Assembly (NCBI GenBank): GCA_000004695.1
Contig: CM000151.3
Location: forward strand, 608,001 to 672,000
Source of the DNA: Dictyostelium discoideum
Taxonomy: Eukaryota
Direction: 5' to 3'
DNA length: 64,000 nt
Both the position numbers and the translations under genes were made by a program. A model generated the notes under the pieces. It was not told the DNA's origin and did not search any database. It saw only the letters and a list, made by a program, of their open reading frames with translations. Each line of letters opens with the position of its first letter. Positions within the stretch are counted from its first letter, which is position 1. This document shows, in pieces, positions 31,768 through 59,827 of the stretch.

Positions 31768-32024
31768 TTAAAGATGGGCATTTTGTTTAGCAGTTCCAAC
31801 TACAAAATAATTTGGTTTCCATCCTTGAGTATTATTATTATTATGGTTAAATAAATTATTTTGATTATTAATATTTTTATTTATTATAAAATTATTATTT
31901 AAATTTTTATTATTTGAACCTAATGAAAGTATAGTTTCTTATAAAAAAGAAAATTATATAATTAGAATAAAAATTTTTTTTTTTTTTTCTAAATTTTAAA
32001 TAAAAACTTACTAAGAATTGACAT
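31768..32024 (-). CDS. micro-gene family member a (54 aa); join(32012..32024,31768..31919)
   Basis: Exon 1 ATG TCA ATT CTT A + GTAAGT; acceptor cattag. C-terminus ...TQGWKPNYFVVGTAKQNAHL. Same exon-1 length and phase as the other five members. Confidence 0.45.
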
Positions 32025-32469
32025 TTTAGTTTTTGTAAATAAAATAATTAATTAATTATTATTTATAATAAAATTAAATTTTTCTTTTTTTTTTTTTATT
32101 GATTTAATAAAAACAATTGATTTAAATAGAATTAAAATTTACCAAAAAAAAAATAAAAAAATAAAAATATAATAAATAAAAAAATAAAAATTATTAAATT
32201 AATTATATTATTAAACATTCATTAAATTATTTTTTGTTACATTTTTTTTTTCCAAAAATAAATTTGAGATTGAGTCTAGATCAATTACAACAATAACGAG
32301 TCAAAGTTCATTTAGATTTCATATTTTTTTTAATATTTCACCATTCAAAATAATGTTTTATAAAAATAAACATAAAATTACAAAAAAACAAAAAAAATCA
32401 CTCACAATTTTTGGGGTTTTTACAATTAAATACATTTAACACACTTTAATGGTACCATTAAGTGTATGA

Positions 32470-32522
<53 letters not shown>

Positions 32523-32692
32523 GATTACATTTTTTATCTTGCTTTGTTTTCTTTTTTTTCTTTTTTTTAATTTTATATTAATAATTAAATTAAAAAGAAA
32601 AATGATTATTAATAAATAATAAAATTAATTAGACTGAAAAAAAAGTTTTTTAATTTTTTTTTTTTTATTTTAATTTTTTGAAATATTTTTTT

Positions 32693-32960
32693 TTATATAT
32701 AAGCAGGAACTTGGACTGGTCCTAAAAATATAATAGTGGGCATTTTCCATTTTTGAATATTATTATTATTATTAAAATTATTATTATATTTGTCATTGGG
32801 ATTTGAATAAATGGTATTTTCCATATTTATTTTATTGTTTTTATTCAAAAATTTAATAATATTTTCTAGTAAAAATTATTTAATATTAGTTTAAATGTAA
32901 AAATTATAATTTTTTCATATAATTTTATTATAAATAAAGATACCAACCAAAAATTGCCAT
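32693..32960 (-). CDS. micro-gene family member b (61 aa); join(32948..32960,32693..32865)
   Basis: Exon 1 ATG GCA ATT TTT G + GTTGGT (weak donor); acceptor ttactag. Protein MAIFENIIKFLNKNN...IQKWKMPTIIFLGPVQVPAYI. The ORF is uninterrupted and the N-terminus MAI[LF]EN[LI]I is shared with member e. Confidence 0.45.
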
Positions 32961-33062
32961 TTTTTTTTTTTTTTAATTTTTTATTTTTAATTTTTTTATT
33001 TTTATAATAAATTTGATGTTATACTTGTTTTTTTTTTGTTATTTGATATATAACAAGATTAA

Positions 33063-33097
<35 letters not shown>

Positions 33098-33723
33098 TTT
33101 ATTAAAAAAAAAAAAATAAAAAATAAAAAAAATATAATAAATAAATAAATAAATATTTATAATAATAAAACAAATGGTGGAATCAAATATTAAATATTTT
33201 ATTCGATTTAATATGTGCAAAAACAGTAGCAGAATACCAATGAATCACATCGTTATTTTATGCGTTCAACCACCCTTTTTCACAAAAAATGATAGTTTTA
33301 CTTTCAGAACACCCAAACACACTTTGTAAAAAAAATAAAAAAAAAAAAACAATTAAAAAGGATTTAATATTTTACAAAAAAAAAAAATAAAAATGAGTTT
33401 TTATTGATCTGATATATTAAATGCTCATATAGAAAAAATAATCCGATTTAAAAATAGAATCATTATATATAGTAATAATAACATACAAAAACACGTTATT
33501 TGATAAACAAATTGAGATTGAATCTCAATAAAAAATTCAGCCAGAAATGGAAAAAAAAAAAATATATTTTAATTACCCATCTTTTTTTTTTTTTCACATA
33601 ATCATTTTATCGAGATTTAAAGGTTAATAAAATGTAATATTTTTTTTTTACTATTTTTCTTTTTTTTTATAAAAAATAATATAATTTTTTAGACTTATAT
33701 AGAAAAAAAATTATATTTAGATT

Positions 33724-33755
<32 letters not shown>

Positions 33756-34592
33756 CTAGTGAAATTTCATTTTTTTTTCATTTTTTTTTTTTTTTTAAAT
33801 CAACTAACTTCTAATAATGATTATGATAAAATTAACAATGATTTATACTTTTCTACTAAAATCAATTTTTATTTCGTGTGTGTGTGTGTGTATGTTTATT
33901 GTGAAAATAAAAAAAAAAAAAAAAAAAAAAAGCTAATCCAATTATAAAAAGATATTATTTTAACGTTGAAGAAAACAGAAAAAAAGATATTATTAACGTT
34001 AAAAAATTTTTTTTTAAGAGTAAAGATTTTTTTTTTTTTTTTTTTTTATATATTAAAAAGTAAACAAAATGTGTATATAGAATTAATCAAATATTAGAGT
34101 CTAAAAAATCAATATTTCAAACTAGATCAAAGTATAAAAATGATTTTTTTTTTTTTTGAAGTTCAAAATCATTTTTTTCATTTTATTTCTCATAAAAAAA
34201 AAAAATTAAAAAATAAAAAAAAAAAATAAAAAAAAAAAAAATAATTCATTAAAGATAAAAAACACACAACATGAAATAATTTTTTTTTTTTATATAAATA
34301 TATTCATTCACCAACACTTTCTAAATGTAATGTTTCTTTTTATTTGCTTTTAAAATAATTCTCTTTGGTATCCTTTTATTAAATTTTCAAAAGGTAAGGT
34401 ATTTTAAAACGAAAGTTCAATTTTTTTTTAATTTTTTTTTTGTTAAAAAGGATAAATTTAAAATATAATTAATATAATATAAAATAAAAAAAATAAAAAA
34501 AAATACAGTTGTGACAAACAATCAAAACTATACTTTTTTATAAATTATAATTTAAAAGCAAGTTTTTTTTTTTTTGGAAATAATTGTTTTTT

Positions 34593-34641
<49 letters not shown>

Positions 34642-34699
34642 GTTATTAATTAAATAAATAAATTATTATATTCTAATGATGGTATATTTATTAGTTAGC

Positions 34700-35830
34700 A
34701 TAAAGGATAGATTTAAAGAATCCCATGGAAAAAGGTCAACCAAGACCACAGTTAACACAATCAACAATCATCACCTTTACCAATAATATCAACAACAACA
34801 ACTAGAAAGAATCACTCAAGGAGCAGTACATAAAGGTTATTATTAGTTAATATTGGATGAATTGAATTTGGCACACTCTGAAGTGTTGGGGGGGGGGGGG
34901 CACTAAATCATCTTTTGAATGAATATTTCTCTACCATCGATTTACAAGAAATCTAAAGTTATTGATGTCATTGATAGTGACTAATGGCGATCATTTAATT
35001 GGCAAATATTTTAATTGGTTTAGAACTACTCTTACATAAATCTTTAGAATGGGAATCACCAAAAGATCCAGAGCAACCATTAGACGATAAAGGTAAAAAC
35101 ACTTGGTAGTAAATCAAATGTTTCAAACACTGATAAAGAGATGAAAGATGAATCTAATCAAGATAATGCTGATGACTTAAATAGTGGTAGACTCAACCAA
35201 CTTCATCTGAAAATGATACAGGTAGATACTCTTAAAAATCTTAAATTTCAACTACCACCACTACCACCACAATCAAGTGCATAACAACCGCTAAAGAAAC
35301 AAAAAACAAGTTGATAAAAATCCATGTAGATCAATGGGTGATGCAAATTATGAGTTAAAGAAATGTTTAAATCTTAAACAAGAGCAAGAGGAACAATCAT
35401 GAACCAAAAGAAAAAGCACCAAATGCCAAAGAAAATGAAAATGAAAATCAAGATCATGAATTCATTAAAGATGATGAAAAACTTTATAAAGATTAAGAAA
35501 CCGATCAAGCTTTAGCCGCACTCTCAGTAGTAGTTACAAGATATTCCACTAAATAAAGCTAAAGATGATCAAGCAGAACAAGAAGAGGATCAAATGGATA
35601 TCGAAAATGAATCATTCATAATAGATTCGATTGAATCTAAAGGATATGAAGAGATTGGTGGAGGCACAACAAAGAATTGTTTTCAATTTGAAAACATTAA
35701 CTGGATTTTTTAAATCACCACTTTCTTGTTGTTACTTTTTTTCAAAGTGAAATTTCACAAAATAAAAGAAATGAAGTAATTCAATAAATAAAGAATTTTT
35801 AAATTAAGCTGATTTGGGAAGATATTTTCC
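34700..35830. repeat. GC-richer degenerate coding-like segment (decayed gene or transposon relic); its sub-segments recur at 54556-54770 and 48560-48745
   Basis: Codon-like composition but with stop codons in all frames. About 85% identity for 35215-35320 and 35525-35600 versus 54556-54700. About 85% identity for 35690-35810 versus 48640-48745 (the ...tttttaaatcaccactttc...gtgaaatttcacaaaataaaagaaatgaag... block). Confidence 0.5.
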
Positions 35831-36310
35831 CCATTTTTTTTTTTTTTTTTTTTAATAAAAGTTTATTTTTAGAATTTAAAAAAAAAAGAGTGTGGGGATA
35901 TATTTTTTATTTTTTTATTTTAATTTTTTTTTTTAAAAAAGAAAATATCTTTTTTTTTTTAAAAGTTTTTCAATTTCAACTAAAAATAATATTAAGCACA
36001 ATTGAGTAACTATTTTTTTTTTTTTTTTATTTATTTATTTATTTGTTTTTAGTGAATGAAGTAAAACTATAATAATACAGTTAGAGAAAAAAAAATAAAA
36101 AGATATTTAGATAGATATATAGATAATAGAAATAGGATATAGATTGATTTTTAGATTACAGATTGATTTTGATTTTTAGATTACAGATTGATTAATTTAG
36201 TTTAGTGTACTGTAGTGTAATTTGGTTTAGTTTAGTTTGAATTGAATTGAATAATATTGGATTTAGATATAGTATTTTGATTCAATTATTTATTACTAGT
36301 TTATTATTAT

Positions 36311-36659
36311 TTAATCATTATGTTCTTTGAAATAACGTCTAATGAGTGGGAATCTAGATAATTTCTTTAAGAAATCATAGTAAGGACTTTTAGGACCTTT
36401 TGGAGCTCTTTGATCACCAAATGTGTAATGTTTAGAGATTTGAGTAGCATGCTTTGCACGAACTTTTAGACGTAAATTATCAAGATATCTAAATGCTCTT
36501 CTTTGTTTTTTCTCTTGCAAATAGCTCTCAAGATATTCTTTTCCGATTTAGAAAATGTATGCTAAAAATATTATAAATACAACAATACCAGCATACATTC
36601 CAATTGGAAATTCTGTTGTTTCCTTTTCACCATAACTAATTGTTGATTCATCTTTACAA

Positions 36660-36691
<32 letters not shown>

Positions 36692-39239
36692 TACAGCAAC
36701 AGTAATAAATAAATAGTTGAGAGATTGATGTATGTATGTATTTATAAAACTTACATTTAAATTGGAAAATTTCAGCAATAAAGTATTGACCATCAACAGA
36801 GATACTGATATTGAATTTAGTATCAGAGTAGTTATATTTTAGCATTTCAGCATAGTTGGTTACATTACAGGATACACTAGAGTAGGTGTGAATGTCAATT
36901 TCATGTTGTGTGCATGGTTTGCCATCAATTAGAATTTCAAGATTTGAATCACCAAATGATGTACCATATATAGTGATTAGAGCAGTTTGATCGATTGAAG
37001 ATGTGTTTGTGATGGTTGGTGGTTCAAATTTGTAGTAATAGCCTGCAGATGGTAGTTGGTAGTTATACATTCTTTCAGTATCAGCACTTGAACTTGTGAT
37101 TAGTAATCTTTTAGAACCAGATGTATAACGTGGTGAAAGTGATCTAAGATTTGGTGCAATTGTACATTCAATGGTTGTAACATTAATTGAAGAAATATTA
37201 CACACTACTTTACCAATGGTAACGGTTGTTGTATCTTTGGCATAGTCAAAAAAGTAATGACCATTAATAGTAACCATTCCACCACCACATGGCACTGCAG
37301 GATCACTATTTTCAATAATAGGTTTCAAAGTGTATTGTTCAAGCATATTACTTTGTTGATCACCAAGTTGGAATCTATAGCTTGCAGTCTTTTTATTACC
37401 TACAGGATAACCAAATATAAGATACTCATGGCCACTTGCTATTACTGTACCATTTAATGTAATGCCACCAGAAAAAACAACAGTTATTATCGAATCCTTA
37501 ATAGAGTCACCTAGGTTATAACCATTAATTTTAATGTTACCATTTTTCTCTTGATAAACTTCAGTAAGTTGTGGAGGATTGTAACTAACATTAAATGAAC
37601 CAATTTGTAAAAGATTATAGTAAATGTTTATCGTGTGGTTTGACCCGAAGCCAGATTTTAAAACACAAGTAAATGATAAACCATCACCATCTTTCGAATG
37701 AATACAAATTGGACCATCAGGCTCACTCTCAAATGTTAATGGGATATCTCTACCATCAAAATCTACAGTTCTCATAAAGATACCTTTAATTTTTAAATCA
37801 TCACCAGGTGTATTTGATTTAAAGCTTTGACCATCAGTAATAGTTGGAGTGATCTTGAAATTATATCTTGGAGCTCTAAATGATTCATCACCATCCTCAA
37901 TAGCGAGTTCCATAAAACCAGGCTGGGTATTATTTGGTAGGAATATGAAAATGGTATTATTACTTTCAATAAAAAAACCAGGTTCTTCCAATGTTGATGT
38001 AGAATTCATTTTGGTAATATTGGTTTTCATACTCATACCAGTAATTACAGTAATAACAATAACTTTAGAAAGATATACACCAGTTACATTGAAAATCTGT
38101 GAATTTCCCCTTTGTTGAACATTTTGAATCAATGGAAGATCATAGGATATTTTAATTGTATTGCTTGTGTATTCACCATCAATCTATTAATAAAAGATCA
38201 AAAAATAATTAGTAATTGGTTATGTTTAGTTATAATATATATTATTATCTCTTACAGTAACAGTTAATGGAATATTATAGCCAAGAAAACCATAGTTTTT
38301 ACGAGTTGGGAGAGTGCATGTTATACTTTTTGAAGAATTGGTGTTGAAACATTCAATTCTTTTATTACCAAAAGTACCGGTAACATTTTGTTTAGATCTT
38401 AAATGATTTCCAGTAAATGTAACATTTCCACCATTATTGTTTAGAACTCCTTCCATTCTTATCAGTTCTGGTGAAAATGAGAAAGTATAACTTCTATAAA
38501 ATGTGTCACATATTTTGACATCTATTTTCCAGAGACCCTGATATCTTGCTTCATTTATTGAAAATTTAACCTCGGTGTGGTCATCATTAATAATACCAAA
38601 CTCTTTGCGATTGGAGTAGATATCATTTTTTGAAAAAATTTCAATGGAGGTGTTAAACAGGTTACTTCCTTTAATAGTAAAACTACCCTCACCATCAAGT
38701 AATGGATCTACTGGTATTGAACCCATTTCATACGTAGCATCGAAAAAGTTCCATTTGCCCAACCTATTATCATAATAAAATTTTAAAATACCGCATCCTT
38801 TGGGTATTTGGATATTGAAAAGGTCCAATGTAGAGTTATAGATAGGCCAAAAATTAACACCATTTAATATAATAGGTTTTACCATCCCATTTGACCTATA
38901 TGCAAGATTATATTCAAAGTTAAAATTTCCACCAGTGGTTGGCATTTTTGGAAACGAAGAGATCTCTGGTATAAAAAAAACTAAAGCCGAAATGTCGTAT
39001 AGCTTGTTTTTGTATGGGTAATTGAGAATATCAAAATAATATCCATCAGCAGCCTTTTCTAGACTAACTTCAATTGCTTTATTATCATATAGGGTAAATG
39101 ATTCTACCTGTTTTGTGCAATTTAGTTTAGTTACCACCAATGAGTTTGGTGATTCATCCTTCGTAAAAATACATTCTGGTTTGGAAAATAAAAATTTATA
39201 AATTAAAATTACAAAAATAGATATATATTTTATTTTCAT
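36311..39239 (-). CDS. tgrB-type IPT/TIG-repeat single-pass membrane protein (tiger family); join(38256..39239,36755..38183,36548..36651) ~839 aa, plus an in-frame 79-aa basic tail ORF (36311..36547) beyond a TAA
   Basis: Signal peptide MKIKYISIFVILIYKFLFS. Repeated IPT/TIG signatures (GGMVTINGHYF, ITVVFSGGITLNG, IYGTSFGD). Donor GTAAGA at 38255 with acceptor attaatag at 38184. Donor T|GTAAGT at 36754 with acceptor ttgtaaag at 36652. Transmembrane helix GMYAGIVVFIIFLAYIF. An in-frame TAA (36548-36550) is followed by a stop-free tail ORF (IGKEYLESYLQEKKQRRAFRYLDNLRLKVRAKH...RRYFKEHND). The gene is divergently paired with a tgrC-type gene. Confidence 0.8.
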
Positions 39240-39654
39240 TTTATATAAATTAAAAAAAATAAAGAAAAATTTTATTATTAAAAAAAAAAAAAAATAAAGA
39301 AAAATTTTATTATTAAAAAAAAAAGAATGAAATAAAAGAAAAAAAAAAAACTAAAGTGGGACAAAAAAAAAAGAAAGAAATAAAAGAAAAAAAAAATAAA
39401 GTGGGACAAAAAAAAAAAATTGTGTTTTGCTTTAAATAATTTTTGAGAAATTTTCTAAAGAGTGTGAGTTTCGATTAAAATATATTTAATCAGCCCTTTC
39501 AAAAATTTGGAGGGGGGGTTAAATAATTTTTTTTGGATTTTCTAAAACTTCAAACAGTGTCATTTCGATTAAAATAAAAATTTTAAACCCCTTTACTCAA
39601 ATTTCTCCTATTTATAGAATTTATTAATATTTTTTTAAATAAATTTATTATTAT

Positions 39655-39697
<43 letters not shown>

Positions 39698-39754
39698 TAC
39701 TTGGGTTTTTTTTATTTTTTAATCATTTTATTAATTCTTTTTAAAATTATAATT
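39240..39754. promoter_or_regulatory. shared bidirectional promoter between the tgrB-type (minus) and tgrC-type (plus) genes
   Basis: 515-bp AT-rich intergenic region between two divergent start codons. It contains an internally duplicated GC-containing module (39440-39500 and 39541-39610: agagtgtgagtttcgattaaaatatattt..cccttt..caaaaatttggaggggggg). The same module recurs upstream of the second tgrC-like gene at 43095-43160. Confidence 0.5.
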
Positions 39755-42384
39755 ATGATTACATTAAAAACTATATTATTTTTAATTTTTTTAGTTTCAT
39801 TTGTTTCATCAGATAATAAAATTAAACCACCTATAGCATGGGGTATTTAGCATTTTTAATTTTAATAGTTGGGTTTTTAAAAATTAATGTTTTAATAATT
39901 AATATTTTTATTTTTATATTTTTTAATAGAGGTAATACGCAATGAAACTTCTTTGATATTAACATATTATAAAAGTCAACCTTATGTTACGAGTCTTATT
40001 ATGTTCAAAGACAAAACCACTCCAAGAACTGATTTTCCAAATTATTTTAATTGTAGTCTCATTGTTGGAGAATTTAGATATTGTATATTCCATTCTGAAC
40101 TTCCTTTTTCAAGATTCTGGGGTAGTATTTATAGTAAGGTATGTGCAAGAGAAGAAGCAGATCCAAGAGAGGATTGCACGTCCTATACATTAGATGAAGT
40201 GATATATATTCATCCATATAATGTTAAATTTAGTGGGCCTGTACCAACATCAGGAGGTGATATTATTATTAACGGTACTTTTTTAAGAATCTCAGGAGGT
40301 CCAAATACAATGGATTATGTCGTCCATGGTTCTTTTTCGAAAGTGGTTGTCAAAGGTAATTTCTCAGATCCATCATTTAACTGTAATAATATCACCGTTA
40401 CGATTCCACCAGGTGGCGGATTTTTTAAACTAATTTTTGGCGAACTTGGAGGAGGAGAATTTGATATTTCATATGCACTTCCAATAATTTCAGATATTGT
40501 CCAGGATTCATCAAAACAACTAATTACAGTTAATGGCCATAACTTTTTTACTGATAATGGATTGGTAGGTGTTTTTTTTGATAATGTCTACCAAAAAAAT
40601 ATAAATATTACAATCAATCATACACAAATTCAAGTGATGGGATTTAATAGAGTTGATCCTGGTCCAATGTCTATTGCTATTGTTATAAAAGATGTATATA
40701 TCGAAAAGAATTATATTCATTGTTTCCCAGCAATAATAACATCAATATCATCAGTATCAAATGAATTGGGTGGTATTGTAACAATTAAAGGTTCAAAGTT
40801 ATCTTCAACTTCAAATTCATCATTAATTCCAACAATTACAATTGGTAAAAAACAATGTAAATTTATTAAATCATCAACAACTGAATTAGAATGTAAATTA
40901 GATCCAAATGAATTTGGCGGTAAAAAGTTATCAGTTGATGTTAATTTCAATGGTTGTAATTCAACAAGTTCTAGTAGTATTCCTGTAACATTTACATATA
41001 ATATCCCAACATTATCAAGTGGGTCATTTTCAAATGGTGTCGTTGCTTTAATTGGGAAAAACCTAGGAAATTATGATGAATCATTCATTCAATTATATGC
41101 AAGTGGAATTAATACAAAAATTGACAAATTTTATACATCATCTGATGAAAAGAGTATATCATTTAAATTACCACTTTTGAGATGTAAATCATTTAATATA
41201 AGTTTCAATAGTGATGGGATTTCTTCAAATGTACTTTCAATTTCAGCATCATTATCAATTAATGTAATTAATAAACCATCAGTACCAAATGGAACATTAA
41301 ATATTGAATTTTATTATATCGATTGTTCAATTAGTTCATCATCAACACCATATATTACAGTTGGTAACTTCTTTACCTATCAATGTTCAATACCATCATT
41401 ACAATCACCAACATTAGATTTTTATCAAACATCATGTTCAATACCATATGGTACTGGTATGAATAAACAATTCACATTCAAATATTATTCATATGAAGTA
41501 AATGAAAAATTTTCATATTCACCACCAAAAGTTGAATCACGTTCATTCTCTAATGATAAAACTATTATTACAATTAATGGTAATAATTTTGGTAATTCAA
41601 AATCATTGATTCAAGTTTATTTCAATGGTAATGATATTTCATCAAAAATTCAATCATTAAATAATAATCAATTTACATTTAAAATATTAAATTCATATAA
41701 AAGTGGTCCAATTAATATTACTGTAGATGGTAGTAGTATGGATTCGTTATTTTATTTAACATTACCCCCTATTATTAATGATATAATAAATAAAGATAAT
41801 AAAACATTAAGTTGTGGAAGTTTAATTACAGTTTCAGGCAATAATTTATTAACAAATGATGAAGAATTCAAAGTTAAAGTATTAGCAAATAATCAAGATA
41901 CAACAATAATTAAACAAGATGAAAACATATTATTAGTTAAATCTGATAATAATGAGAGTCCACTAAATGTTTCAGTATTTATTGGTAATGATTTAATAAT
42001 ATCAAATGTAACATTAACATATTTAGAACCAATAATTACAGTAATTCCAACTATTAAAAATAATAAAGATGGTATTTCAATAATAATTGGTGGGATTAGT
42101 TTGTCAAATATTATTAATGCAAGTTTAACACTCTCTTCAAATGATAATAATAATACTATAATACCTCTTAAATGTAATTTACAATGTAGTTTGTCCCCAA
42201 ATGGCACATTTTATATTAATAATACAATAAGTTCAAATGAAATTGATATTACTAATCGTTTATTATGCCATTCAAACTCAATTGTTAATGAGACATCAGG
42301 AGTATTAAATCTTCATTTTACTTCGATATCATTCCATCATTTTGTTAAAATTGATGAATCTGAATCTACTTCATCTTCGCCATT

Positions 42385-42468
<84 letters not shown>

Positions 42469-42574
42469 GTCATTTAGTGGCGGAAGTAAATCAAGTAAAT
42501 TATCAAGTAGTACAATTGCTGGTATTACAATTGGTTTTTTTAGTGTTGTTGGGGTTTTTGTTGATATATTTTAA
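39755..42574 (+). CDS. tgrC-type IPT/TIG-repeat membrane protein, ~910 aa; join(39755..39842,39930..42574)
   Basis: Exon 1 encodes signal peptide [19 protein letters not shown]. Donor G|GTATTT at 39843; acceptor taatag at 39929. Exon 2 is the 873-aa ORF. At least seven TIG-like units ([39 protein letters not shown]...). A poly-Ser stalk is encoded by (TCA)n, followed by a C-terminal TM helix ([19 protein letters not shown]) with no cytoplasmic tail. Confidence 0.85.
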
Positions 42575-43345: not shown

Positions 43346-45954
43346 ATGATATTAAAAACAATATTAATTTTTTCGTTTTTAGTTTCATTTTTTTCAACTG
43401 CTCATTCAATTGAAAAACCTTTTGTAATAGGTATTTATCTTTTAAATTTAAATACAGTGTAAATTTAAATACAGAAATCTATTTTTTTTTAATAATTCCA
43501 TTTATGTTTTTAAAATTAATAACTGTATTTAAATATTGTTGAACATTAGAGGAAATACACAATGAAACTTCTTTGATTTTTAAATTTTATAAAGAAAGGT
43601 CTTATATTAGCCGTCTGGAAATGTATAAAGACCGAGAAACTCCAAGAACTGATTTTCCAAATTATTTCGACTGTACTCTCATTATTGGAGAATATAGATA
43701 TTGTGTTTTGCATTCTGACCTTCCTTTTTCTAGACTATGGGGTAGTATTTATAGTAAGGTATGTGTAAGAGATGTATCAAGTCCAAGAGTGGATTGTATT
43801 TCATATAAGATAATAGATGTTTCATATGTGGCTCCAGTAAATGTCAAATTTACCAGTCTTCCTCCAACCTCAGGAGGTGATGTCGTTATAAATGGTAGTT
43901 TTTTAAGGTTCGTTGGAGGTCCAAATAAACTTGATCATAGCATTCCTCCTTTTAACCCATTTTATGTTAAAGGCGATTTCTCAGATCCATCATTTAACTG
44001 TAATAATATCACTGTTACATTTCCACCAGGTTCCGGATCATTTTGGGTATTTTTTATTGACGGAGTAAGTGGTGAATATTTAATTTCTTATGCACACCCA
44101 AAAATTTCAGGTTTTATTGTGGATTTATCAAAAAATGTAATAATAATTGATGGAGATAACTTTTTTACTAATAAATCTTTGGTTCAAGTTTATTTTGATG
44201 ATATCCAACAACAAAATATAAGTATTACAATTAGTCATACACAAATTCAAGTAATAAACTTCAATAGAATCGATCCTGGTCCAATGTCTGTTCTTATTAC
44301 AGTAAATGGAGTTCAAACCCAAAATAATTATACTCATTGTTTCCCGTCAATTATTACATCAATATCTTCAGTATCAAATGATTTGGGTGGTATAGTAACA
44401 ATTAAAGGTTCAAAGTTATCTTCAACTTCAAATTCATCGATAATTCCTTCAATTACAATTGGTAATAAACAATGTAAATTTATTAAATCAACAACAACTG
44501 AATTAGAATGTAAATTAGATCCAAATATATCTAGTGGTAAAAAGTTATCAGTTGATGTTAATTTCAATGGTTGTAATTCAACAAGTTCTGGTAGTAGTCC
44601 TGTAACATTTACATATAATATTCCAGCACTATCAAGTGGGTCATTTTCAAATGGTATCGTTACATTAATTGGGGAGAATCTTGGTAATAATAAAGAATCA
44701 TTCATTCAATTATATACTAATGAAATTAATATAAAAATTGAAAAATTTAATATATCATCTGATCAAAAGAGTTTAACATTTAAATTGCCACATTTAAAAT
44801 GTAAATCATTTAATATTAATTTCACTCGTAATAATATTTCAATTAACACAATTTCAATTTCGGCATCATTATCAAATAATGTAATTAATAAACCATCAGT
44901 ATCAAATGGAACATTATTTATTGAATTGTATTATATCGATTGTCCAATTAGTTCATCATCAAAACCAACTATTACAGTTGGTAATTCATTAACCAATCAA
45001 TGTTCAATACCATTATTAAAATCATCAACATCAGATTATTATGAAACAACATGTTTAATACCATTTGGTACTGGTATCAATAGACAATTCGCATTGAAAT
45101 ATAATTCAGAGTTAGTAAATAACATTTTCTCATATGCACCACCTATTATTAATGATATAATAAATAAAGATAATAAAACATTAAGTTGTGGAAGTATTAT
45201 AACAGTTTCAGGTAATAATTTATTAACAAATGATGAAGAATTCAAAGTTAAAGTATTAGCAAATAATCAAGATACAACAATAATTAAACAAGATGAAAAC
45301 ATATTATTAGTTAAATATGATATTAATGAGAGTCCACTAAATGTTTCAGTATTTATTGGTAATGATTTGATAAAATCAAATGTAATATTAACATTTTTAC
45401 AACCAATAATTACAGTTATTCCAAATATTAAAAATAATAAAGATGGTATTTCAATAATAATTGGTGGAATTAGTTTGTCGAATATTATTAATTCAAGTTT
45501 AACACTCTCTTTAAATGATAATTTAAATACTATTATACCTCTTAAATGTAATTTACAATGTAGTCTATTTCCAAATGATACATTTTATTATAATAATACA
45601 GTATTAAGTTCAAATGAAATTCATATTACAAATTATACTGATAGTTTATTATGTCATTCAAATTCAATAATTAATGAAACATCAGGAGTATTAAATATTC
45701 AATTTGCTCAAACTTCATTCCATTATGATGTTAAAATTGATGAAATTGAATCTTCATCATCATCATTTTCACAATCATCTTCACCATCATCTTCACCATC
45801 ATCTTCACCACCATCTTCAACATCATTATCATCTTCACCATCATCATCATCATCATCATCAATAAGTGGTGGAAGTAAATCATTAAGTGGTACAGTTGCA
45901 AGTATTACAATTGCTTGTGTTGCTGTTGTTGGTGCTCTTGTTGCTATAATTTAA
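43346..45954 (+). CDS. tgrC-type paralogue 2, ~822 aa; join(43346..43430,43550..45954); lacks one TIG unit relative to 39755..42574
   Basis: Same architecture: signal peptide MILKTILIFSFLVSFFSTAHS, donor G|GTATTT and acceptor cattag. About 70% aa identity to the upstream paralogue. An ~88-aa segment ([16 protein letters not shown]...[10 protein letters not shown]) present in the first paralogue is absent. Ser/Pro-rich stalk followed by TM helix ITIACVAVVGALVAII. Confidence 0.85.
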
Positions 45955-48774: not shown

Positions 48775-48783
48775 ACACCAAAT

Positions 48784-48872
<89 letters not shown>

Positions 48873-49095: not shown

Positions 49096-51458
49096 TAAGA
49101 TTTGAATCACCAAATGATGTACCATATATAGTGATTAAAGCAGTTTGATTGATTGAAGATGTATTTGTAATGGTTGGTAGTTCAAATTTGTAGTAATAAT
49201 CTGCAGATTGTAGTTCGTAGTTATACATTCTTTAAGTATCAGCACTTGAACTTGTGATTAGTAATCGTTTAGAACCAGATGTATAACGTGGTGAAAGTGA
49301 TCTAATATTTGATGCATTTACACATTCATTGGTCGTAACATTAATTGAAGAAATATTACACACTACTTTACCGATGGTAATGGTTTTTGTATCTTTGACA
49401 TAGTTAAAAAAGTAATGACCATTAATAGTAACCATTCCACCTCCATATGGCACTTCAGGATCACTATTTTCAATAATAGGTTTCAAAGTGTATTGTTCAA
49501 GCATATTACCCCGTCGATCACCAAGTTGGGAAATTTAGCTTGCCGTCTTTTTATTACCTATAGGATACCCAAATATAAGATACTCATGGCCACTTGCTAT
49601 TACTGTACCATTTAATATACTGCCATCAGAAAAAACAACAGTTATTATTGAATCCTTAATAGAGTCACCCTAGGTTATAACCATTGATTTTAATGTTACC
49701 GTTTTTCTCTTGATAAACTCCAGTAAGTTGTGGAGGATTGTAACTAACATTAAATGAACCAATTTGTAAAAGATTATAGTAAATTTTTATCGTGTAGTTT
49801 GACCGGAAGCCAGATTTTAAAACACAAGTAAATGATAAACCATCACCATCTTTTGAATGAATACAAATTGGGCCATCAGGCTTACTATTAAATGTTAAGG
49901 GATATCTCTGCCATCAAAATCTACAGTTCTCATAAAGATACCTTTAATTTTTAAACTATCACCAGGTGTATTTGAATAGAAGCTTTGACCATCAGTAATA
50001 GTTGGAGTGATCTTGAAATTAAATCTTGGAGCTCTAAAAGATTTATCACCATCTTTAATAACTAGTTCCATAAACCAGGCTGGGTATTATTTGGTAGGTA
50101 TATGAAAATGGTGTTATTACTTTCAATAAAAAATCCAGGTTCTTCCAATGTTGATGCATACTTTTTGGAAATATTGGTTTTCATACTCATACCAGTAACT
50201 ACTGTGATATTACTAACTCTAGAAAGATATATACCAGTTACATTGAAAACCTGTGAATTGCCCCTTTGTTGAACATTTTGAATCAATGGAAGATCATGCG
50301 ATATTTTAATTGTATTGCTTGTGTATTCACCATCGATCTATTAATAAAAGGTCAAAAATAAATTAGTAATTGGTTGTATGTAGTTATAATCTCCTATTGG
50401 TTTTGTATTCACCATCAATCTATTAATAAAAGATCAAATAATAATTAGTAATCGGTTATAATATATATTATTATCTCTTACAGTAACAGTTAATGGAATA
50501 TTATAGCCAAGAAAACCATAGTCTTTACGAGTTGGGTGAGTGCATGTTATACTTTTTGAAGAATTGGTGTTGAAACATTCAATTACTTTATTACCAAAAG
50601 TACCGGTAACATTTTGTTTAGATCTTAAATAGTTTCCAGTAAATGTAATATTTCCACCATTATTATTTAGCACTCCTTCCATTCTTATCGGTTTTGGAGA
50701 AAATGAGAAATAATATTCACTATAAAATGTGTCACATATTTTGACATTTATTTTCCATTCGCTCCGATAACTTGTTTCATTTATTGAAAATTTGACTTCA
50801 GTATGAGCATCATTAATAGTACCAAACTCTCTGCGACTGGCTTTAGTATCATTTTGAAGAGAAAAGATTTCAATGGTGGTGTTAAACAGGTTACTTCCTT
50901 TAAAAGTAAAACTACCCTGATCATCAAGTATTGGAACTTTTGACATTTCGCCCTTTTAATACGTTGTATTGAAAATATTCCACCTTCCGATATTATTATC
51001 ATAAAAATTTAAAATACCACATCCTTTGGGTATTTGGATATTAAAAAGGTCCAATGTAGAGTTATAGATAGGAGTGGATATAAAATCTTTTGTTGAGATA
51101 GCACCTTCCCAGTTGACTTATTAGGAAAATTATATTCGAAGTTGAAATATTCACCTGTGGTTGGCATTTTTGGAAACAAAGAGATCTCTGGTACAAAATG
51201 AATACTTGAAGACAGGTCGTATAGCTTGTTTTTGTATGGGTAATTGAGATTATCAAAATAATAATAATTTCCATCAGTAGCCTTTTCTAGATTAACTTCT
51301 ATTGTTTTATTATCATATAAGGTAAATAGTTCTATCTGTTTTGTGCAATTTAGTTTAGTTACCACCGACGAGATAGGTTCATTCTTCATAAAATCACAAT
51401 TTGATTTGGAAAATAAAAATTATAAAATTATAAAAATAGATATATGTTTTATTTTCAT
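49092..51458 (-). pseudogene. tgrB-type pseudogene (psi-A2): 3'-truncated, with frameshifts and stops
   Basis: Colinear with 36940..39239 of the intact tgrB-type gene, including the intron. ORF fragments at 49232..49504, 50062..50286, 50434..50946 and 51009..51389 are all in the tgr family. A stop follows codon 12 after the ATG at 51458. The C-terminal exon and tail are missing. Confidence 0.75.
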
Positions 51459-53318: not shown

Positions 53319-53609
53319 CAACCCCTCCCCCACTTAAATTAATATCTTTTTTTTTCTAACGCCACAAAAAGTGCAAAAATTATTACAAAATAAATATTTT
53401 CAAAATTCAAAATAAAAGAAATAAATAATGTATATTTTATTTAAATTTAATAAAAAAAAATTTTTGAAGCAAATTATATATTATTAAAATTTTTTTTTTT
53501 AATATTTTTTTTTTTATTTAATGAGCCAAAACATATTTTATTATTTATTTTCTAAGTTTTGGTTGAACATTTTTTTTTTTTCATTTTTTTTATCCTTTTT
53601 AATATTATA

Positions 53610-54555
53610 ATGACATTAAAAACAATATTATTTTTGACTTTTTTGGTTTTATTTTTTTCAACTGCTTATACAATTGAAAAACCTTGGGTTACAGGTATTT
53701 ATCTTTTTTAATTTTTATACAGTTTAGTATTGAAGTCAATTGTTTTTAAAAAATTCTATTTTCATGTTTTGTAATTAAATAGAGGTAATTTACAATGAAA
53801 CTTCATTGGTTTTTAAATATTTTAAAGATCAACCTTATATTAGCCGTCTTGTAATGTATAAAGACCGAGAAACTCAATATTTCGACTGTACTCTCATTAT
53901 TGATGATCATAGATATTGTGTATTCCATTCTGACCTTCCTTTTTCGAGATTATGGGGCAGTCTAGAGAGTATGGTATGTTCAAGAGATGTATCAAGTCCA
54001 AAAGTGGATTGTTTATCCTATAGGATTATAGATGTTTCATATGTGAAACCAATAAATATTAATTTTACCAGACTTCCTCCAACATCAGGGGGAGATATTG
54101 TTATTAATGGTAATTTTCTAAGATTCGTTGGAGGTCCTAATAAACTTTATAATAGCATTTCTCATAGTAATCCATTAGAAGTTAAAGGAGATTTCTCATA
54201 TCCATCATTTAACTGTAATAGTATCACTGTTTCATTTCCCCCAGGTTCCGGACCATTTGAGGTGTATTCTATTGACAGAATAGGTGGAGAATATTTAACT
54301 TCTTATGAACCGCCAAAAATTTCAAGTTTTATTCTGGATCCATCAAAACAAATAATAACAATTGATGGTGATAACTTTTTTACTGATAGCTCTTTGGTTC
54401 AAGTTTATTTTGATGAAATCCTACAACAAAATATAAGTATTACAATTAGTCATACACAAATTCAAGTGAAACACTTTATTAGAACCGATCCTGGCCCAAT
54501 GTCTACTCGTATTACTGTAGATCAAGTTTCGACACAAAATAATTATATGATATAA
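53610..54555 (+). pseudogene. truncated tgrC-type 5' gene fragment (psi-B4); join(53610..53694,53783..54555)
   Basis: Intact signal-peptide exon and splice sites, with a B2-like promoter remnant upstream. There is an in-frame ~18-nt deletion (RETQYFDC versus [14 protein letters not shown]). Homology ends at 54545, where repeat R1 begins, leaving a stop after ~280 aa and no TM domain. Confidence 0.65.
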
Positions 54556-55050
54556 ATAGGTACACTTTAAAATCTTAAATTTAAACCACCACCGGTACAA
54601 TCAAGTGCATAATAACCACCAAAGAATCAAAAACTAGTTACAAGATATTTCACTAAATAAGGCTTGAAAAAGATCATCAAGATTGTGAAGATGATAAATT
54701 GAATGGTTCAAATCAAAAAGAACAATTCATAAAGGTTTGATTTTGATTGAACCACCTAACGACTTTTTGGGGTCTCTTGTATGATAATTCATTCCAAAGA
54801 TGATTTGATGACTGTTACCATTACTATTACTATTACTATTACTATTACTATTACTATATATATTATTTTCTCTACTTATACCAATAGCATACCAATACCA
54901 ATTGTTATTTTTTTTTTTTTTTTTTTTATTATTTATTATTTATTTGTTTATTTACTTATTTATTTATTTATTTTTACATCTAAATGTACATTTTCTATTT
55001 GTATTTATTTTTTGTTTTCTTTTTTGGTTGATGTTGCTCCTGTATTATTT
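54556..55050. repeat. composite of repeat R1 (54556-54770) and R2 (54780-55050) abutting the truncated tgrC fragment
   Basis: See R1 (34700-35830) and R2 (46560-47110). Confidence 0.5.
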
Positions 55051-55536
55051 GATTTTATTAAAAGACAATTATTTTTTTTAATTATTTATTTTTATTTTTT
55101 TTATTTTTTTTTTTATAAAAATTTTTATTTTTTGTATACAAAATATATCAAAAACGAATTTAATTATTATTATTTTTAATTTTTTTTTTTTTTTTTTTGG
55201 GTTCAATTGAGAAAAAAAAATTAACTTGACTGAATTAGTTGTTTTTTTTTTATTTTTTAATAAATGAATTAAGTTATCTTGTTACATCTTGTTTTTTTTT
55301 TAATTTATTAATTCAAACATTCACATTATTTTTTAAAAAAAAAAAAAAAAAAATATACCAATTAATTCAACCAAATTTTTTTCTTTTTTAAAATCTATTT
55401 TTTATATAAAATATATTCACTCTTTGTTGTTCTTCAAAATAAAAAATAATTACAAAAAATGAATGAAAAATAATTAAATTCTATATACTTAATATTCACA
55501 AAAATTCTTATTATATAAGAGTAATTTTTGTTTGTA

Positions 55537-55776
55537 TTAATTTTTATTGTTCTTTATTCTGATCCCCATGGTTCCTTGGCATTCAACCTGGTATGTACAA
55601 TTTCTTTCATTGTCATCAGCGCTTCTATCACAAATTGAACACTCGCGTTTTCCATATGTTCCACCTTCACTGTAATGTAAGTTTCCCCCACATTCTCTGA
55701 TGTGCTTTTCTGGTGATGGTAATAAACGCAAACAAGAGTTGCATTGATATTCTTGGGTTAATTTTGTTCTGCTCAT
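55537..55776 (-). CDS. small Cys-rich ORF, 79 aa, unusually GC-rich (~40% GC)
   Basis: MSRTKLTQEYQCNSCLRLLPSPEKHIRECGGNLHYSEGGTYGKRECSICDRSADDNERNCTYQVECQGTMGIRIKNNKN. Eight Cys including two CxxC pairs. No signal peptide. Its composition is unlike surrounding DNA. It could be a zinc-ribbon micro-protein or a transposon ORF relic. Confidence 0.3.
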   Translation of the reverse strand: MSRTKLTQEYQCNSCLRLLPSPEKHIRECGGNLHYSEGGTYGKRECSICDRSADDNERNCTYQVECQGTMGIRIKNNKN

Positions 55777-56184
55777 ATTGCAATCGTTATAAAATTAAAT
55801 TGTGAAAAACTTTTTTCAAAATTTTGATTTTTATAATAAATATTTTTTCCTCTCAAGATTTTAAAAAAAAATTCAATTTTTTTTTGATTTTGTTTTGCAG
55901 AGTCACATCTTATCTTTGTAAATGTTTTTACATATAAATTACATAGTTTTATTTGAAAAATTTTTTTATTTTTTTTTTTGGGTTTCCAGTATGTTTTTAT
56001 CAATATTGTTGTAGGGAATTTTCAATAAAATTTCACTGCCCAGCGCAGTGAATTTTATTATTTAATTTCACTCTACTGCATCTGTTTTTTTCAGGTGATA
56101 ATGGTGGTAATCATAATAATAATAATTGTGGTAATCGTAATAATAATGTAACAATCGTAATAATGATAGTAGTAGTGATGATGA

Positions 56185-56941
56185 CTATGATAATTTATAA
56201 AACTTACATTTAAATTGGAAAATTTCAGCTATAAAGTATTGACCGATGTACCATATATAGAGATTAGAGCAGTTGGATCGATTGAGGATGTGTTTGTGAT
56301 GGTTGGTGGTTCAAATTTGTAGTAATAGTCTGCAGATGGTAGTTCGTAGTTATACATTCTTTCAGTATCAGCACTTGAACTTGTGATTAGTAATCTTATA
56401 GAACCAGATGTATAACGTGGTGAAAGTGATCTAAGATTTGGTGCAATTACACATTCAATGGTTGTAACATTAGTTGGAGAAATATTACACACTACTTTAC
56501 CAATAGTAATGGTTGTTGTATTTTTAGCATAGTTAAAAAAGTAATGACCATTAATAGTAACCATTCCACCTCCGCATGGCACTGCAGGATCACTGTTTTC
56601 TATTATAGGTTTCAAAGTGTATTGTTCAAATATATTACTCTGTTGATCACCAAGTTGGGAAATATATCTTGCCGTCTTTTTATTACCTACAGGATAACCA
56701 AATATAAGATACTCATGGCCACTTGCTATTACTGTACTTGGACCGCTAGGCTTACTCTTAAATGTTATTGAGATATCTCTTCTCACATCATATAGGGTAA
56801 TTGATTCTACCTGTCTTGTGCAATTTAATTTAGTTACACCAATGATTTAAAAGATTCATTGTTCATAAAACCACATTATGATTTAGAAAATAAAAATTTA
56901 TTAATTAAAATTATTAAAATAGATATATATTTTATTTTCAT
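56185..56941 (-). pseudogene. tgrB-type pseudogene (psi-A3) with a large internal deletion
   Basis: ORF 56229..56786 matches the mid-gene TIG units (GGMVTINGHYF..). 56787-56941 matches the first ~50 codons and ATG region of the intact gene (compare 39060-39240), so about 1.6 kb between them is deleted. The 3' exon is replaced by repeat R3. Confidence 0.7.
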
Positions 56942-57004
56942 TTTTATCAATTACTAATTAATTTTAAAAAATATATTTTGTGTTTAAAAAAAAAAAGTTT
57001 GTTT

Positions 57005-57046
<42 letters not shown>

Positions 57047-57071
57047 GAGTCTAAAATAAAATCTTGTTTAA

Positions 57072-57359
57072 TTAAATGCTGGTATATGGTTTATTTGGTG
57101 GTTTTTGAGAAATTTGTGGAATATTATCGAATCTACCATCTATTTGGCTAACCATTGAATTTGTATACCCAACAACATTTGATTTTAGAAATAATGTAAT
57201 TGAATCATTTTTACTTTTACTTTTCTTTACATTAAATTGTGAAAATGAGCTGATTGATCCTAAATATTTTAAATTTACAATTTAGACAAAAAAAAAATAA
57301 TATTTTAATAAATTAAATTTTTTAAAAACATTATTATATAGTTTACCTAAAATTGTCAT
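57072..57359 (-). CDS. micro-gene family member c (66 aa); join(57347..57359,57072..57259)
   Basis: Exon 1 ATG ACA ATT TTA G + GTAAAC; acceptor atatttag. Protein MTILGSISSFSQFNVKKSKSKNDSITLFLKSNVVGYTNSMVSQIDGRFDNIPQISQKPPNKPYTSI. The exon-2 ORF is uninterrupted. The C-terminus diverges from the WK.P...AHL consensus of members a, b, e and f. Confidence 0.45.
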
Positions 57360-57895
57360 TTTTTTATATGATAAATAATTTAAATAATTTAATAATTAAA
57401 AAAACAAATTTAGAAAAAAAAAATACATAAATATTTATAAATAGTTTTAAGAAAAAAAAAAAAAAAATAATAATTACAATTTAAAAGATTTCTTTTTGGT
57501 TATTGATAAATATAAAAAAAGCACAATCTAAAAAAGAATATTAAAAAATATAAAAGGAAATTTTTATGTATAATTTAAATAGGAAGTATTAATTTATATG
57601 AATGTGAAGTTTTTATTCAAAAAATTAAACAAAGATGTCAAGACTAATAAAGTTTCACACAACTGTTCAATCTCGACTCAATTGTGATTTTATTTTTTAA
57701 AAAATTATCAAAGAATGGGGTTTCAAATAATTTTTTAATTGTGAGTGGGTGTAAAAAAAAAATATTATTTACATATATAAAAAATTTATTATTAATATTA
57801 TTTTTTTTTTATTTATTTTTTAATTTTTTTTTTTTTTTTATTATTATTTCTTACAAAAATTAATTAGGCATTACTTGTTTTTTATTTGATAATCC

Positions 57896-58158
57896 TTAGT
57901 TTAATGAATTTGTACCATAAAAATCATTTCTTATTTCAGGTGAAATATTTAAATTGTCAAATGGTTGTAATTCAGTTATAGAGTTTAATGTATATCCAAC
58001 ATTATATTTATATGGTAATAATGAATTTATTGAATTATTATTTTTATTTCTCCCTAAAATTGAACAAATTGATGCTTAATTAAGAAAATAAAAAAAGAGA
58101 TTATTAAAAGATTAATTTTTTTTTTTTTTTTATAATTTTAATTACCTAAAATTGTCAT
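57896..58158 (-). CDS. micro-gene family member d (56 aa); join(58146..58158,57896..58053)
   Basis: Exon 1 ATG ACA ATT TTA G + GTAATT; acceptor attttag. Protein MTILGRNKNNNSINSLLPYKYNVGYTLNSITELQPFDNLNISPEIRNDFYGTNSLN. Confidence 0.4.
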
Positions 58159-58243
58159 TTTTTTTATTTCAGATTGAGTATAATTATAATTTTTTTAAGA
58201 TATCTTTAACTTTGATTTCGTGAAAATAAGGTTTTTTATGGAA

Positions 58244-58281
<38 letters not shown>

Positions 58282-58616
58282 AAATTTAAATTAAAATGTG
58301 TCTGTGTAAAAATGAATAAATAAATAAAAGTGTTTGGATCTATGATTTTAAAAAATCTCTTTTAAAAATAAAAACCCACTTTAACCCCTATCACAATTTT
58401 GCTATAATAAATAAAAAACACCCCTATTCTTTGATTTTTTTTGATTTTTTTTAAAGAAAAAAAAAAAGATGAAATAATTTTTATAAAAAAAAAAAAACCA
58501 ATTTAAAATTAATTTATATAAAACTATCTTTTTTTTTTTTTTTTTAATATTTTTATTTTTTATTTTCTATTTTTAGTTAAGAAATAAATTAGTTTAGGAA
58601 TTTTAATAAAATAAAA

Positions 58617-58877
58617 TTACAAATGTGCAGAACCTGTGTGAGTATGAGAATTTTGAATAGGTGGGAGTTTCCAAATGTTATCTTTTTGAGAAACACATTT
58701 ACTATACATAATATTACTGGAATATTGATTATAACTTTTATTTATTAAAAAACTATTCTTTTCATTTGATTGAATTGAAATTAAATTTTCTAAGAATTGG
58801 TTGTTAATATTAAAAGTTTTATATTTTTAAAATAAATAAAATAATAATGATATTAAAAACATACCTAATATTGCCAT
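58617..58877 (-). CDS. micro-gene family member e (61 aa); join(58865..58877,58617..58789)
   Basis: Exon 1 ATG GCA ATA TTA G + GTATGT; acceptor ttcttag. Protein MAILENLISIQSNEKNSFLINKSYNQYSSNIMYSKCVSQKDNIWKLPPIQNSHTHTGSAHL. Confidence 0.5.
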
Positions 58878-59529
58878 TTTAAACAAAAAATAAATATTTT
58901 TAAATTAAAAAAAACCATTTAATTTTGTTCTTTTATTTATAAATGAATACATATTAAAAAAATAAAAAAAAAAAAAAAAAAAAAATATTTAAAAATTAAG
59001 AATTTTTAACTTCTTATTGTTAAACAAGATCAATGATATAATAAAATAAAAATTTTTATAAACTGAAAAATAAAAATAATAATAATAATAAAAACCCAAT
59101 TATTTTCACCCATGAAATGGGCAAAAATTTAAAATTTTGTATGAAAACCCTAATTATACCCACCCAACCGCCCAAAATTGTAAATAAATAATTAAAATTT
59201 TTGATTATTTTTTTATTTTATTTTCTTTTTTTTTTTGTTTTTTTGGTAGTCATTGCACGATTTCCTTTTTTAGAATTAAAAAAACATTTACAAAAAATGG
59301 ATTAATAATTAAATTCTAAAAAAAAAAATAAAAAAAAAAAATAAAAAATAAAGTGATACAATTGCCGTATTACAATTGGTAGTATCACAATTGTTAATAC
59401 TCTTTTAAAATAAAATATAAAAAATAATAAGAAAACATAATTTTAATAGTTTTAATAAATTAATTTTAAATTGGTATTCTTTTATTATTTTTATATTTTA
59501 AGTTGATTAATTTAGGAATTTTCATAAAA

Positions 59530-59827
59530 TTACAAATGTGCAGAACCTGTGTAAGTATGAGAATCTTGAATAGTTGGGAGTTTCCAAATGCTTTCTTTTT
59601 GAGACTCTGATTTACTATACAAAATATTACTGGAAAATTCATCATAACTTTTATTTAATAAGAAACCATTCTTTTCATTTGATTTAATTGAAATTAAATT
59701 TTCTTAATTTAAGTTGGTTGTTAATTATTTTTTTAAAAAAAAAAAAAAAAAAATTGAAAAAAATTAAAAAAAAAAAAAATTAAAAAAAAAATAATAATAA
59801 TAATAAAAACATACTTAATATTGCCAT
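59530..59827 (-). CDS. micro-gene family member f (61 aa), a tandem duplicate of e; join(59815..59827,59530..59702)
   Basis: Exon 1 ATG GCA ATA TTA A + GTATGT; acceptor aattaag. Protein MAILKNLISIKSNEKNGFLLNKSYDEFSSNILYSKSESQKESIWKLPTIQDSHTYTGSAHL. About 75% identical to e. It lies in the second unit of the ~930-bp tandem duplication. Confidence 0.5.

Follow-up and report, generated by a model that had tools for sequence, protein, structure and literature searches.

Within a 64,000-nucleotide (nt) stretch of Dictyostelium discoideum AX4 chromosome 2 (positions 608001-672000, 22.6% G+C; hereafter the window, whose own coordinates are used below unless chromosome positions are given), six very short open reading frames (ORFs) lie on the minus strand, each behind a minute first exon, and the question is whether they are protein-coding genes and, if so, where they come from. 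A preliminary description of the sequence had proposed six two-exon genes with a first exon of exactly 13 nt and an N-terminus resembling that of the hssA/2C/7E and sigN small proteins. Judged from the sequence, we consider it fairly probable that these genes, referred to here as a to f, are genuine small protein-coding genes and divergent, species-restricted offshoots of the hssA/2C/7E/sigN superfamily.

Splicing the sequence in silico reproduced all six models, with ATG codons at 32024, 32960, 57359, 58158, 58877 and 59827. Gene a (DDB_G0271554, 31768-32024, chr2:639768-640024 in the reference) encodes 60 amino acids (aa) and consists of exon 1 (32012-32024), a 74-nt intron (31938-32011, GTAAGT...AAG) and exon 2 (31768-31937). 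Gene b (DDB_G0271578, 32693-32960, chr2:640693-640960; 61 aa) has its exons at 32948-32960 and 32693-32865, separated by an 82-nt intron (32866-32947) with a weak GTTGGT donor. In the second group of genes, c (DDB_G0271656, 57072-57359; 66 aa) is made up of exon 1 at 57347-57359, an 87-nt intron at 57260-57346 (GTAAAC) and exon 2 at 57072-57259, and d (DDB_G0271560, 57896-58158; 63 aa) of exon 1 at 58146-58158, a 71-nt intron at 58075-58145 (GTAATT) and exon 2 at 57896-58074. The two-exon models of e (DDB_G0271588, 58617-58877) and f (DDB_G0271658, 59530-59827) each yield 61 aa; both introns start with GTATGT, that of e being 75 nt long (58790-58864, between exons 58865-58877 and 58617-58789) and that of f 112 nt (59703-59814, between exons 59815-59827 and 59530-59702).

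The first exons read ATGTCAATTCTTA, ATGGCAATTTTTG, ATGACAATTTTAG (in two genes), ATGGCAATATTAG and ATGGCAATATTAA, and in all six genes they encode M-[A/T/S]-I-[L/F] plus 1 nt, just as proposed, with the donors that had been listed. The introns, described beforehand as AT-rich and 60-110 nt long, measure 71-112 nt at 7-12% G+C; each ends in AG and is followed by a stop-free exon 2 that reaches the expected stop codon. The main models give 60-66 aa, where the earlier range was 54-66 aa. Genes a and d have a second in-frame acceptor, 92 nt in, which would give alternative products of 54 and 56 aa, and the lower figure of the earlier range corresponds to this acceptor in gene a.

We scanned both strands of the window with a pattern describing the family and retrieved six matches, every one of them leading into a spliced ORF of 50 aa or more. 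In dinucleotide-preserving shuffles, 0.17 pattern matches were obtained, and 0.01-0.02 with a spliced ORF of this length, so that the family pattern occurs far beyond chance. Since the pattern had been fixed post hoc, from the six genes themselves, a second, less biased scan was run over both strands (128 kb); all it demanded was an ATG-initiated first exon of 13 nt before a GTA donor, 45-150 nt of intron and an ORF no shorter than 50 aa. It returned six matches: genes a, c, d, e and f and one unrelated match inside tgrK2. No seventh member was found in the window by either pattern scan or by tblastn with the six proteins and DDB_G0272316, a paralogue considered below. DDB_G0271580 (33838-34080, plus strand), a small annotated coding sequence (CDS), was considered as a member and rejected, as it is without the family structure.

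The coding signal agrees with the models. Pooled over the six coding sequences, G+C content at codon positions 1, 2 and 3 is 0.26, 0.29 and 0.13 (chi-square p = 7e-7), the periodicity typical of Dictyostelium; depletion at the third position (GC3) is seen in five of the six genes and is absent from b. Exon G+C (0.18-0.26) is higher than intron G+C. The frames are intact across 170-190 nt in sequence of about 78% A+T, and in the shuffles about 6-10% of pattern matches yielded such a spliced ORF.

A 13-nt exon-1 ORF is the published signature of the hssA/2C/7E/sigN family of about 100 genes (PMC2257962; Kin 2018, PMC6198379); sigN and 96 sigN-like genes encode proteins of less than 120 aa (Vicente 2008, PMC2257962). 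In all six genes of the window a 13-nt exon-1 ORF is followed by one short intron, and exon 2 carries what remains of the CDS. Their products are likewise below 120 aa and have an N-terminus of the MTIL(G/A)SISS type, which is MTILGSISS in c and MTILASICS in d and takes the looser form M[AS]I[LF]..[IL][ILS][SK][ILF] in a, b, e and f. The shared 13-nt exon 1 and N-terminus therefore make the architecture of the six genes that of the known superfamily, and the proposed resemblance to hssA/2C/7E and sigN is upheld by a hallmark already in the literature (PMC2257962, PMC6198379). Also correct was the remark that the products are not Gly-rich: Gly accounts for 2-5% of residues, compared with 18% in a bona fide HssA control protein. 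That control has 3 Cys, compared with 0-1 in each of the six proteins, in which Asn reaches 32%. The Ser/Gly/Cys-rich exon-2 body, on which the 'cysteine-knot-like' annotation is based, is thus missing.

Comparison with the two best-described branches of the superfamily gives a mixed picture. The six genes share with the sigN (SrfA-induced gene N) family (PMC2257962) the MTIL.SI.S-type N-terminus and the occurrence in tandem clusters on chromosome 2; unlike sigN proteins, their products are 60-66 aa rather than 87-89 aa long and have neither the Ser/Gly/Cys-rich body nor the C-terminal Cys motif. With hssA/2C/7E (PF05710 'Coiled', HssA/B-related domain) they have in common the 13-bp exon 1, an exon 2 of about 200 bp and the restriction to (group 4) dictyostelids, for which absence elsewhere is weak evidence, since genes this small frequently go uncalled in the annotations of other species. 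In contrast to that family, the exon-2 bodies of the six are unrelated in sequence and composition, and the type seen in a, b, e and f was found in D. discoideum only. Alignment by hhalign of c and d with HssA gave a probability of 62%, over 10 columns only, at 80% identity; for a, b, e and f the value was 3%. The idea that the exon-2 bodies are frame-shifted HssA-type exons found no support, as the weak N-terminal matches come from the true frame only.

Are the six genes one family? As had been described, a, b, e and f all have the W-K-x-P motif and end in A-[HY]-[LI]. Genes c and d share another body, ...VGY[TS]...FDN[IL]..P.I, with DDB_G0272316 (XP_645135), an uncharacterised gene of 63 aa at chr2:1270771-1271085. 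The e and f proteins are 75% identical (z ~40), a and b are related with z 5-6, and identity within the a/b and c/d pairs is about 30-35%. When the first 12 residues were removed, a profile of a and b detected e and f (p <= 0.002), and outside the N-terminus a profile of c and DDB_G0272316 detected d (p < 0.001). The a/b/e/f profile detected DDB_G0272316 (p = 0.005) and neither c nor d, and hhalign connected the two groups through the N-terminal decapeptide only. Since profiles link sequences within the groups and barely across them, we distinguish two subfamilies, a/b/e/f and c/d with DDB_G0272316. The expression 'family of six' was therefore too strong: the N-terminal decapeptide is shared with confidence, but beyond about 12 residues the two groups can be linked only tentatively. 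An alignment of seven sequences hints, likewise tentatively, at a shared layout, DN[IL]..P.I and then [NP]A[YH][IL]-stop.

DDB_G0272316 is judged to be a two-exon gene from its 192-nt CDS in a 315-nt span. It is 77% identical to c, starts with MPILGSIS and has the VGY and FDN motifs, though it lies about 605 kb from c and in the opposite orientation. Its C-terminus, NAYI, is like that of gene b (PAYI), which is the sole hint that links the two subfamilies. A paralogue thus exists elsewhere on chromosome 2; the preliminary description had named a lack of paralogues, together with a lack of spliced reads, as its refutation. Outside D. discoideum no relatives of a, b, e and f were found, a profile search of 1.84 billion representative proteins matching four D. 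discoideum proteins only; the c/d profile, too, found D. discoideum proteins only. A probe search retrieved PF05710 members, namely DDB_G0273025, a D. purpureum 'HssA/2C/7E family protein' and one D. dimigraforme protein.

The D. dimigraforme locus (L002, JBTAPM010000036.1) holds, on the minus strand with ATG at 4780, an uncalled HssA-type gene with the 13-nt exon 1 ATGACAATCATGG before a GTAAAT donor. Its product begins MTIMASISSIGNVKSSSKSK, also given as MTIMASISSIGNVK, and is 32% identical to that of gene c over 40 aa. A divergent HssA-type partner lies on the plus strand at 5395-5727; its exon 1, ATGACAATTTTTAG, is followed by GTAATT and is 14 nt long. This looks like a homopolymer error, which would account for the unusual 105-aa product annotated there (P0010).

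Genes e and f, with their upstream regions, are carried by a tandem duplication of about 930 bp, present in two copies at 58590-60265 (minus strand) and seen in the alignment and in repeat families D1, D10 and D19. Exon 2 of the two genes is 90% identical, with 0 indels in the coding part, as compared to 79% identity and 33% gapped alignment columns in the intron, and 80% identity and 27% gapped columns in the upstream region; in the downstream flank identity drops to 54%. Exon 2 has therefore been under more constraint than the DNA around it. Upstream conservation takes the form of discrete islands, among them GGGTGGGTATAATTA, which on the minus strand occupies 59151-59165 and 60082-60096, some 285 nt ahead of the e and f ATGs. 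These boxes resemble the G-rich (GBF-like) motifs reported for sigN Group 2 promoters, a further likeness to that family. GGGTGGG occurs 3 times in the window with 0.76 expected, a mild enrichment that is a lead only. A candidate third repeat unit upstream of f (60782-60898) was rejected as a low-complexity likeness beside a divergent poly-Q gene.

All six genes are annotated in the AX4 reference, in which the earlier statement that ORF finders miss them does not hold. The products of a, b, c and d are residue for residue those of reference proteins XP_645598, XP_645599, XP_645611 and XP_645612, labelled 'hypothetical' or 'uncharacterized'. For e and f the reference gives 76 and 95 aa, respectively (f was found by exhaustive hidden Markov model search). 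In these models the GT of CAT-TT/G-TAA is taken as a donor, so that the stop codon is bypassed, and 3′ exons are added on the minus strand, one to e (58195-58243) and two to f (59350-59391 and 59248-59313). Despite the tandem-duplicate status of the genes, the two extensions are mutually unrelated; that of e stops 37 nt short of the gene d ATG, and the last reference exon of f falls where the repeat unit supplies the upstream DNA of e. Under the simple models e and f both terminate in GSAHL-stop, to be compared with NAHL-stop in a and PAYI-stop in b. Because the extensions are unshared and one added exon lies in a neighbour's upstream DNA while AHL-stop is conserved, we prefer the two-exon models: DDB_G0271588 and DDB_G0271658 probably end at this conserved terminus, and the added exons are probably annotation artefacts. 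The segment AACAATTGTGATACTACCAATTGTAATACGGCAATTGTATCAC (59353-59394), a short palindromic or repeated element downstream of f that is coding in the reference f model, contains three CAATTG motifs.

The claim that such genes are overlooked does hold for a second D. discoideum assembly, GCA_054883475.1 (locus L001), which is 99.67% identical across 17.8 kb and in which the c-f exons are unchanged: its annotation has no call for d, e and f and joins c to a downstream TIG fragment. An estimate of selection from this strain comparison was uninformative, there being zero differences in the c-f exons. The two assemblies differ by 26, 7 and 9 nt at A/T homopolymers of up to about 66 nt (60499-60565, 58246-58252 and 57006-57014). 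A literature search by identifier found no occurrence of the DDB_G identifiers of these genes in the main text of any paper.

Published expression tables single out gene f. Of the six genes, all but f appear in the 'too low to test' sheet of Kin et al. (PMC6198379). There, d is at 0 in all 11 libraries, a and b show single traces, and c (0.20, 0.23 and 0.25 transcripts per million, TPM) and e (0.52, 0.99 and 0.22 TPM) were detected in three cup-cell replicates only. Gene f, the one member clearly expressed, is listed among the cup-specific genes, with values of 0.4, 4.3, 3.8, 1.6, 1.6, 2.9 and 23.6 over the 0-24 h time course and of 8.3 TPM in cup cells, 0.3 in spores, 0.5 in stalk and 0.7 in vegetative cells (PMC6198379). 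Late (24 h), cup-enriched expression is the qualitative pattern of the cup-specific hssA clade (PMC6198379), at about 1/100 of the level; sigN12 reaches 1620 in cup cells (PMC6198379). As compared to sigN12, expression of the six genes is 100- to 1000-fold lower, and prestalk induction at 10 h is not evident for them.

The predicted products are short, rich in N, S and K and, as the models suggest, largely disordered. AlphaFold gave no fold, with a mean predicted local distance difference test score (pLDDT) of 55 for e (exon 2) and 60 for c and a predicted template modelling score (pTM) of about 0.15, low values that may stem from a very shallow alignment instead of true disorder; in c, short helical turns were placed at residues 4-10 and 24-31 only. 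Hydrophobic runs do not exceed 4 residues and maximum 19-residue hydropathy is below 0.7, so that there is no classical signal peptide or membrane span. In the decapeptide, the conserved hydrophobic residues at positions 3, 4, 7 and 10 would be compatible with a short (amphipathic) helix that has them on one side. The gene f product contains the tryptic peptide LPTIQDSHTYTGSAHL.

Several observations weigh against the view that the six are genuine, divergent members of the superfamily. The PF05710 gathering threshold (21.4 bits) is not reached by any of them: c, d and DDB_G0272316 score 13.7, 13.9 and 12.9 bits, in matches confined to the first 25-35 profile positions, and a, b, e and f give no match whatever, as compared to 35 and 69.6 bits for control proteins P0009 and P0011. 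For this reason homology to the hssA family rests on the architecture and some 10-25 N-terminal residues. When e is compared with f, the ratio of non-synonymous to synonymous substitution rates (dN/dS) comes to 1.43, from small numbers (2.5 synonymous and 15.5 non-synonymous differences), and the differences fall mostly at the first codon position (10, 4 and 4 at positions 1, 2 and 3). Purifying selection on the e/f peptide is not visible; the pattern is compatible with evolution that is relaxed or diversifying, or with a constraint acting on the nucleotide sequence. The poor donor of gene b and the shallow alignment behind the AlphaFold models count on the same side. One could accordingly ask whether f is the only working copy and most of the six (a, b and d, possibly also c and e) are duplicates in decay or without function from the outset, incipient pseudogenes or 'proto-genes' whose frames are open through recency. 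Expression of 0 TPM for d and no more than 1 TPM for a, b, c and e across four cell types, the b donor, an e/f dN/dS of about 1.4, the lack of orthologues among the other species' proteomes searched and the abundance of gene fragments nearby, such as tgrK3 and a TIG fragment at 56229-56786, all fit this idea. It is nonetheless unlikely, if worth keeping in mind. Six frames intact at this A+T content would be surprising when so few shuffled matches yield one, GC3 is depleted in all genes except b, and exon 2 of e and f is free of indels whereas introns and flanks are full of them. The a/b and c/d pairs have diverged strongly and yet keep their frames and motifs, which implies long-term maintenance; moreover, the expression data sample four states only, terminal or vegetative.

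A role of the loci through their transcripts, with an incidental ORF, would be in keeping with the report that a frame-shifted hssA copy still suppressed a partially active STATa mutant (PMC6198379, citing Shimada et al. 2008), and with the indel-free, 90% nucleotide conservation of e/f exon 2 in the face of a dN/dS that carries no sign of protein constraint. We regard it as very improbable for these genes, given the codon-position periodicity and the peptide motifs (WKxP, AHL-stop, VGYT and FDN) that are kept between copies whose DNA has strongly diverged; nor did any RNA structure or RNA family come to light, although no search was aimed at one. Only slightly less improbable is the proposal that the six are ordinary HssA/2C/7E members (PF05710) of no special status. 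It draws on the common architecture and N-terminus and on the weak PF05710 matches of c and d, but those matches lie far below the cut-off, the other four proteins give none and align with HssA at an hhalign probability of 3%, and the composition is not that of the Gly/Ser/Cys-rich family bodies. Nor does the 96-gene list (Vicente 2008, Additional file 1) hold a chromosome-2 entry of 60, 61, 63 or 66 aa with 71-87-nt introns, a comparison made by size and chromosome only, since the list carries old DDB identifiers. Hardly credible, finally, are chance ORFs, with six found where 0.01-0.02 were expected, or 5′ pieces of larger genes. The latter notion comes from the GCA_054883475.1 annotation, in which c supplies the first exons of a TIG-domain gene, KAM9951519 (256 aa), that unites it with the downstream TIG ORF. 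The fusion requires a non-canonical GC donor inside ACCA/GCATTTAA (a GC-AG intron), the appended fragment matches stretches from within nearby tgr genes at 92-94% identity, and the paralogue DDB_G0272316 terminates at the position equivalent to the end of c.

If the six genes are divergent offshoots of the superfamily, as we favour, they would have kept an ancestral 5′ module, consisting of the ATG, the 13-nt exon-1 ORF encoding M-[TAS]-I-[LF], a phase-1 AT-rich intron and x-[STN]-[IL]-x-[SK]-[ILF], while their exon-2 bodies would have diverged into two types, ...WK.P.I...A[HY][LI]-stop in a/b/e/f and ...VGY[TS]...FDN[IL]..P.I in c/d. They would have spread by local tandem duplication, which is demonstrated for e/f and may be supposed for a/b and c/d. 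The N-terminal decapeptide, the sole shared element, would presumably be the functional one, and f is turned on at the end of development with enrichment in the cup. No developmental phenotype was seen when 13 sigN genes, or six other members of the family, were knocked out (PMC2257962; PMC8554618), and by analogy the genes described here are probably dispensable one by one, under weak or diversifying constraint and with a birth-and-death pattern. Taken with the activity of the frame-shifted hssA copy, these phenotype-free knock-outs keep redundancy, and possibly a transcript-level role, under consideration for the superfamily as a whole.

The named neighbours, tgrJ1 (36311-39239, minus strand), tgrK1 (39755-42574), tgrK2 (43346-45954) and tgrK3 (53610-54555), place the six small genes within a cluster of tgr genes, the IPT/TIG, kin-recognition family, and a TRE3-B retrotransposon ORF lies at 10122-11780 (PMC6198379 tables). 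ARAGORN predicted a tRNA-Arg(TCT) at 10267-10339 on the plus strand, within or beside the range of TRE3-B ORF2. TRE3 elements target tRNA genes. The TIG fragment at 56229-56786 (minus strand) is a 185-aa ORF with an IPT/TIG domain (PF01833, 33 bits) and without a proper start; its DNA is 92-94% identical to 36958-37450, inside tgrJ1, and to 49116-49608, and it is thus a duplicated tgr fragment. Between a and b, ACACTTAATGGTACCATTAAAGTGT (32441-32466) is a short palindromic or repeated intergenic element, and a run of 14 G at 34887-34900 (plus strand) is striking amid about 20% G+C.

Part of what is described here was already known: the six genes are annotated in the reference genome and their architecture has been published since 2008, so that the observation is correct but ordinary and opens no new biological question by itself. 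New are the recognition of these genes as divergent, non-Gly-rich offshoots of the superfamily, their division into two subfamilies and two reference models that probably need correction. Newer automatic annotations drop or mis-fuse such small genes. For the family, the consequence is that the 13-nt-first-exon architecture reaches at least seven uncharacterised genes that have no Gly/Cys-rich body and escape Pfam, which makes the superfamily larger and less uniform than the usual figure of about 96-100 genes conveys. A more speculative and rather doubtful reading would make the 13-nt-exon/MxIL module, which runs from the promoter-proximal ATG through exon 1 and the phase-1 intron to about the sixth codon of exon 2, a reusable 5′ cassette that is joined, after tandem duplication, to unrelated or new AT-rich exon-2 bodies. 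Three body types (HssA, a/b/e/f and c/d) without demonstrable homology past the N-terminus are consistent with it, as are a dN/dS of about 1, very low expression and the finding of no orthologues. If this were true, the locus would serve as a nursery for young peptide genes specific to the species, and not as a collection of copies that diverged from a single ancestral protein.

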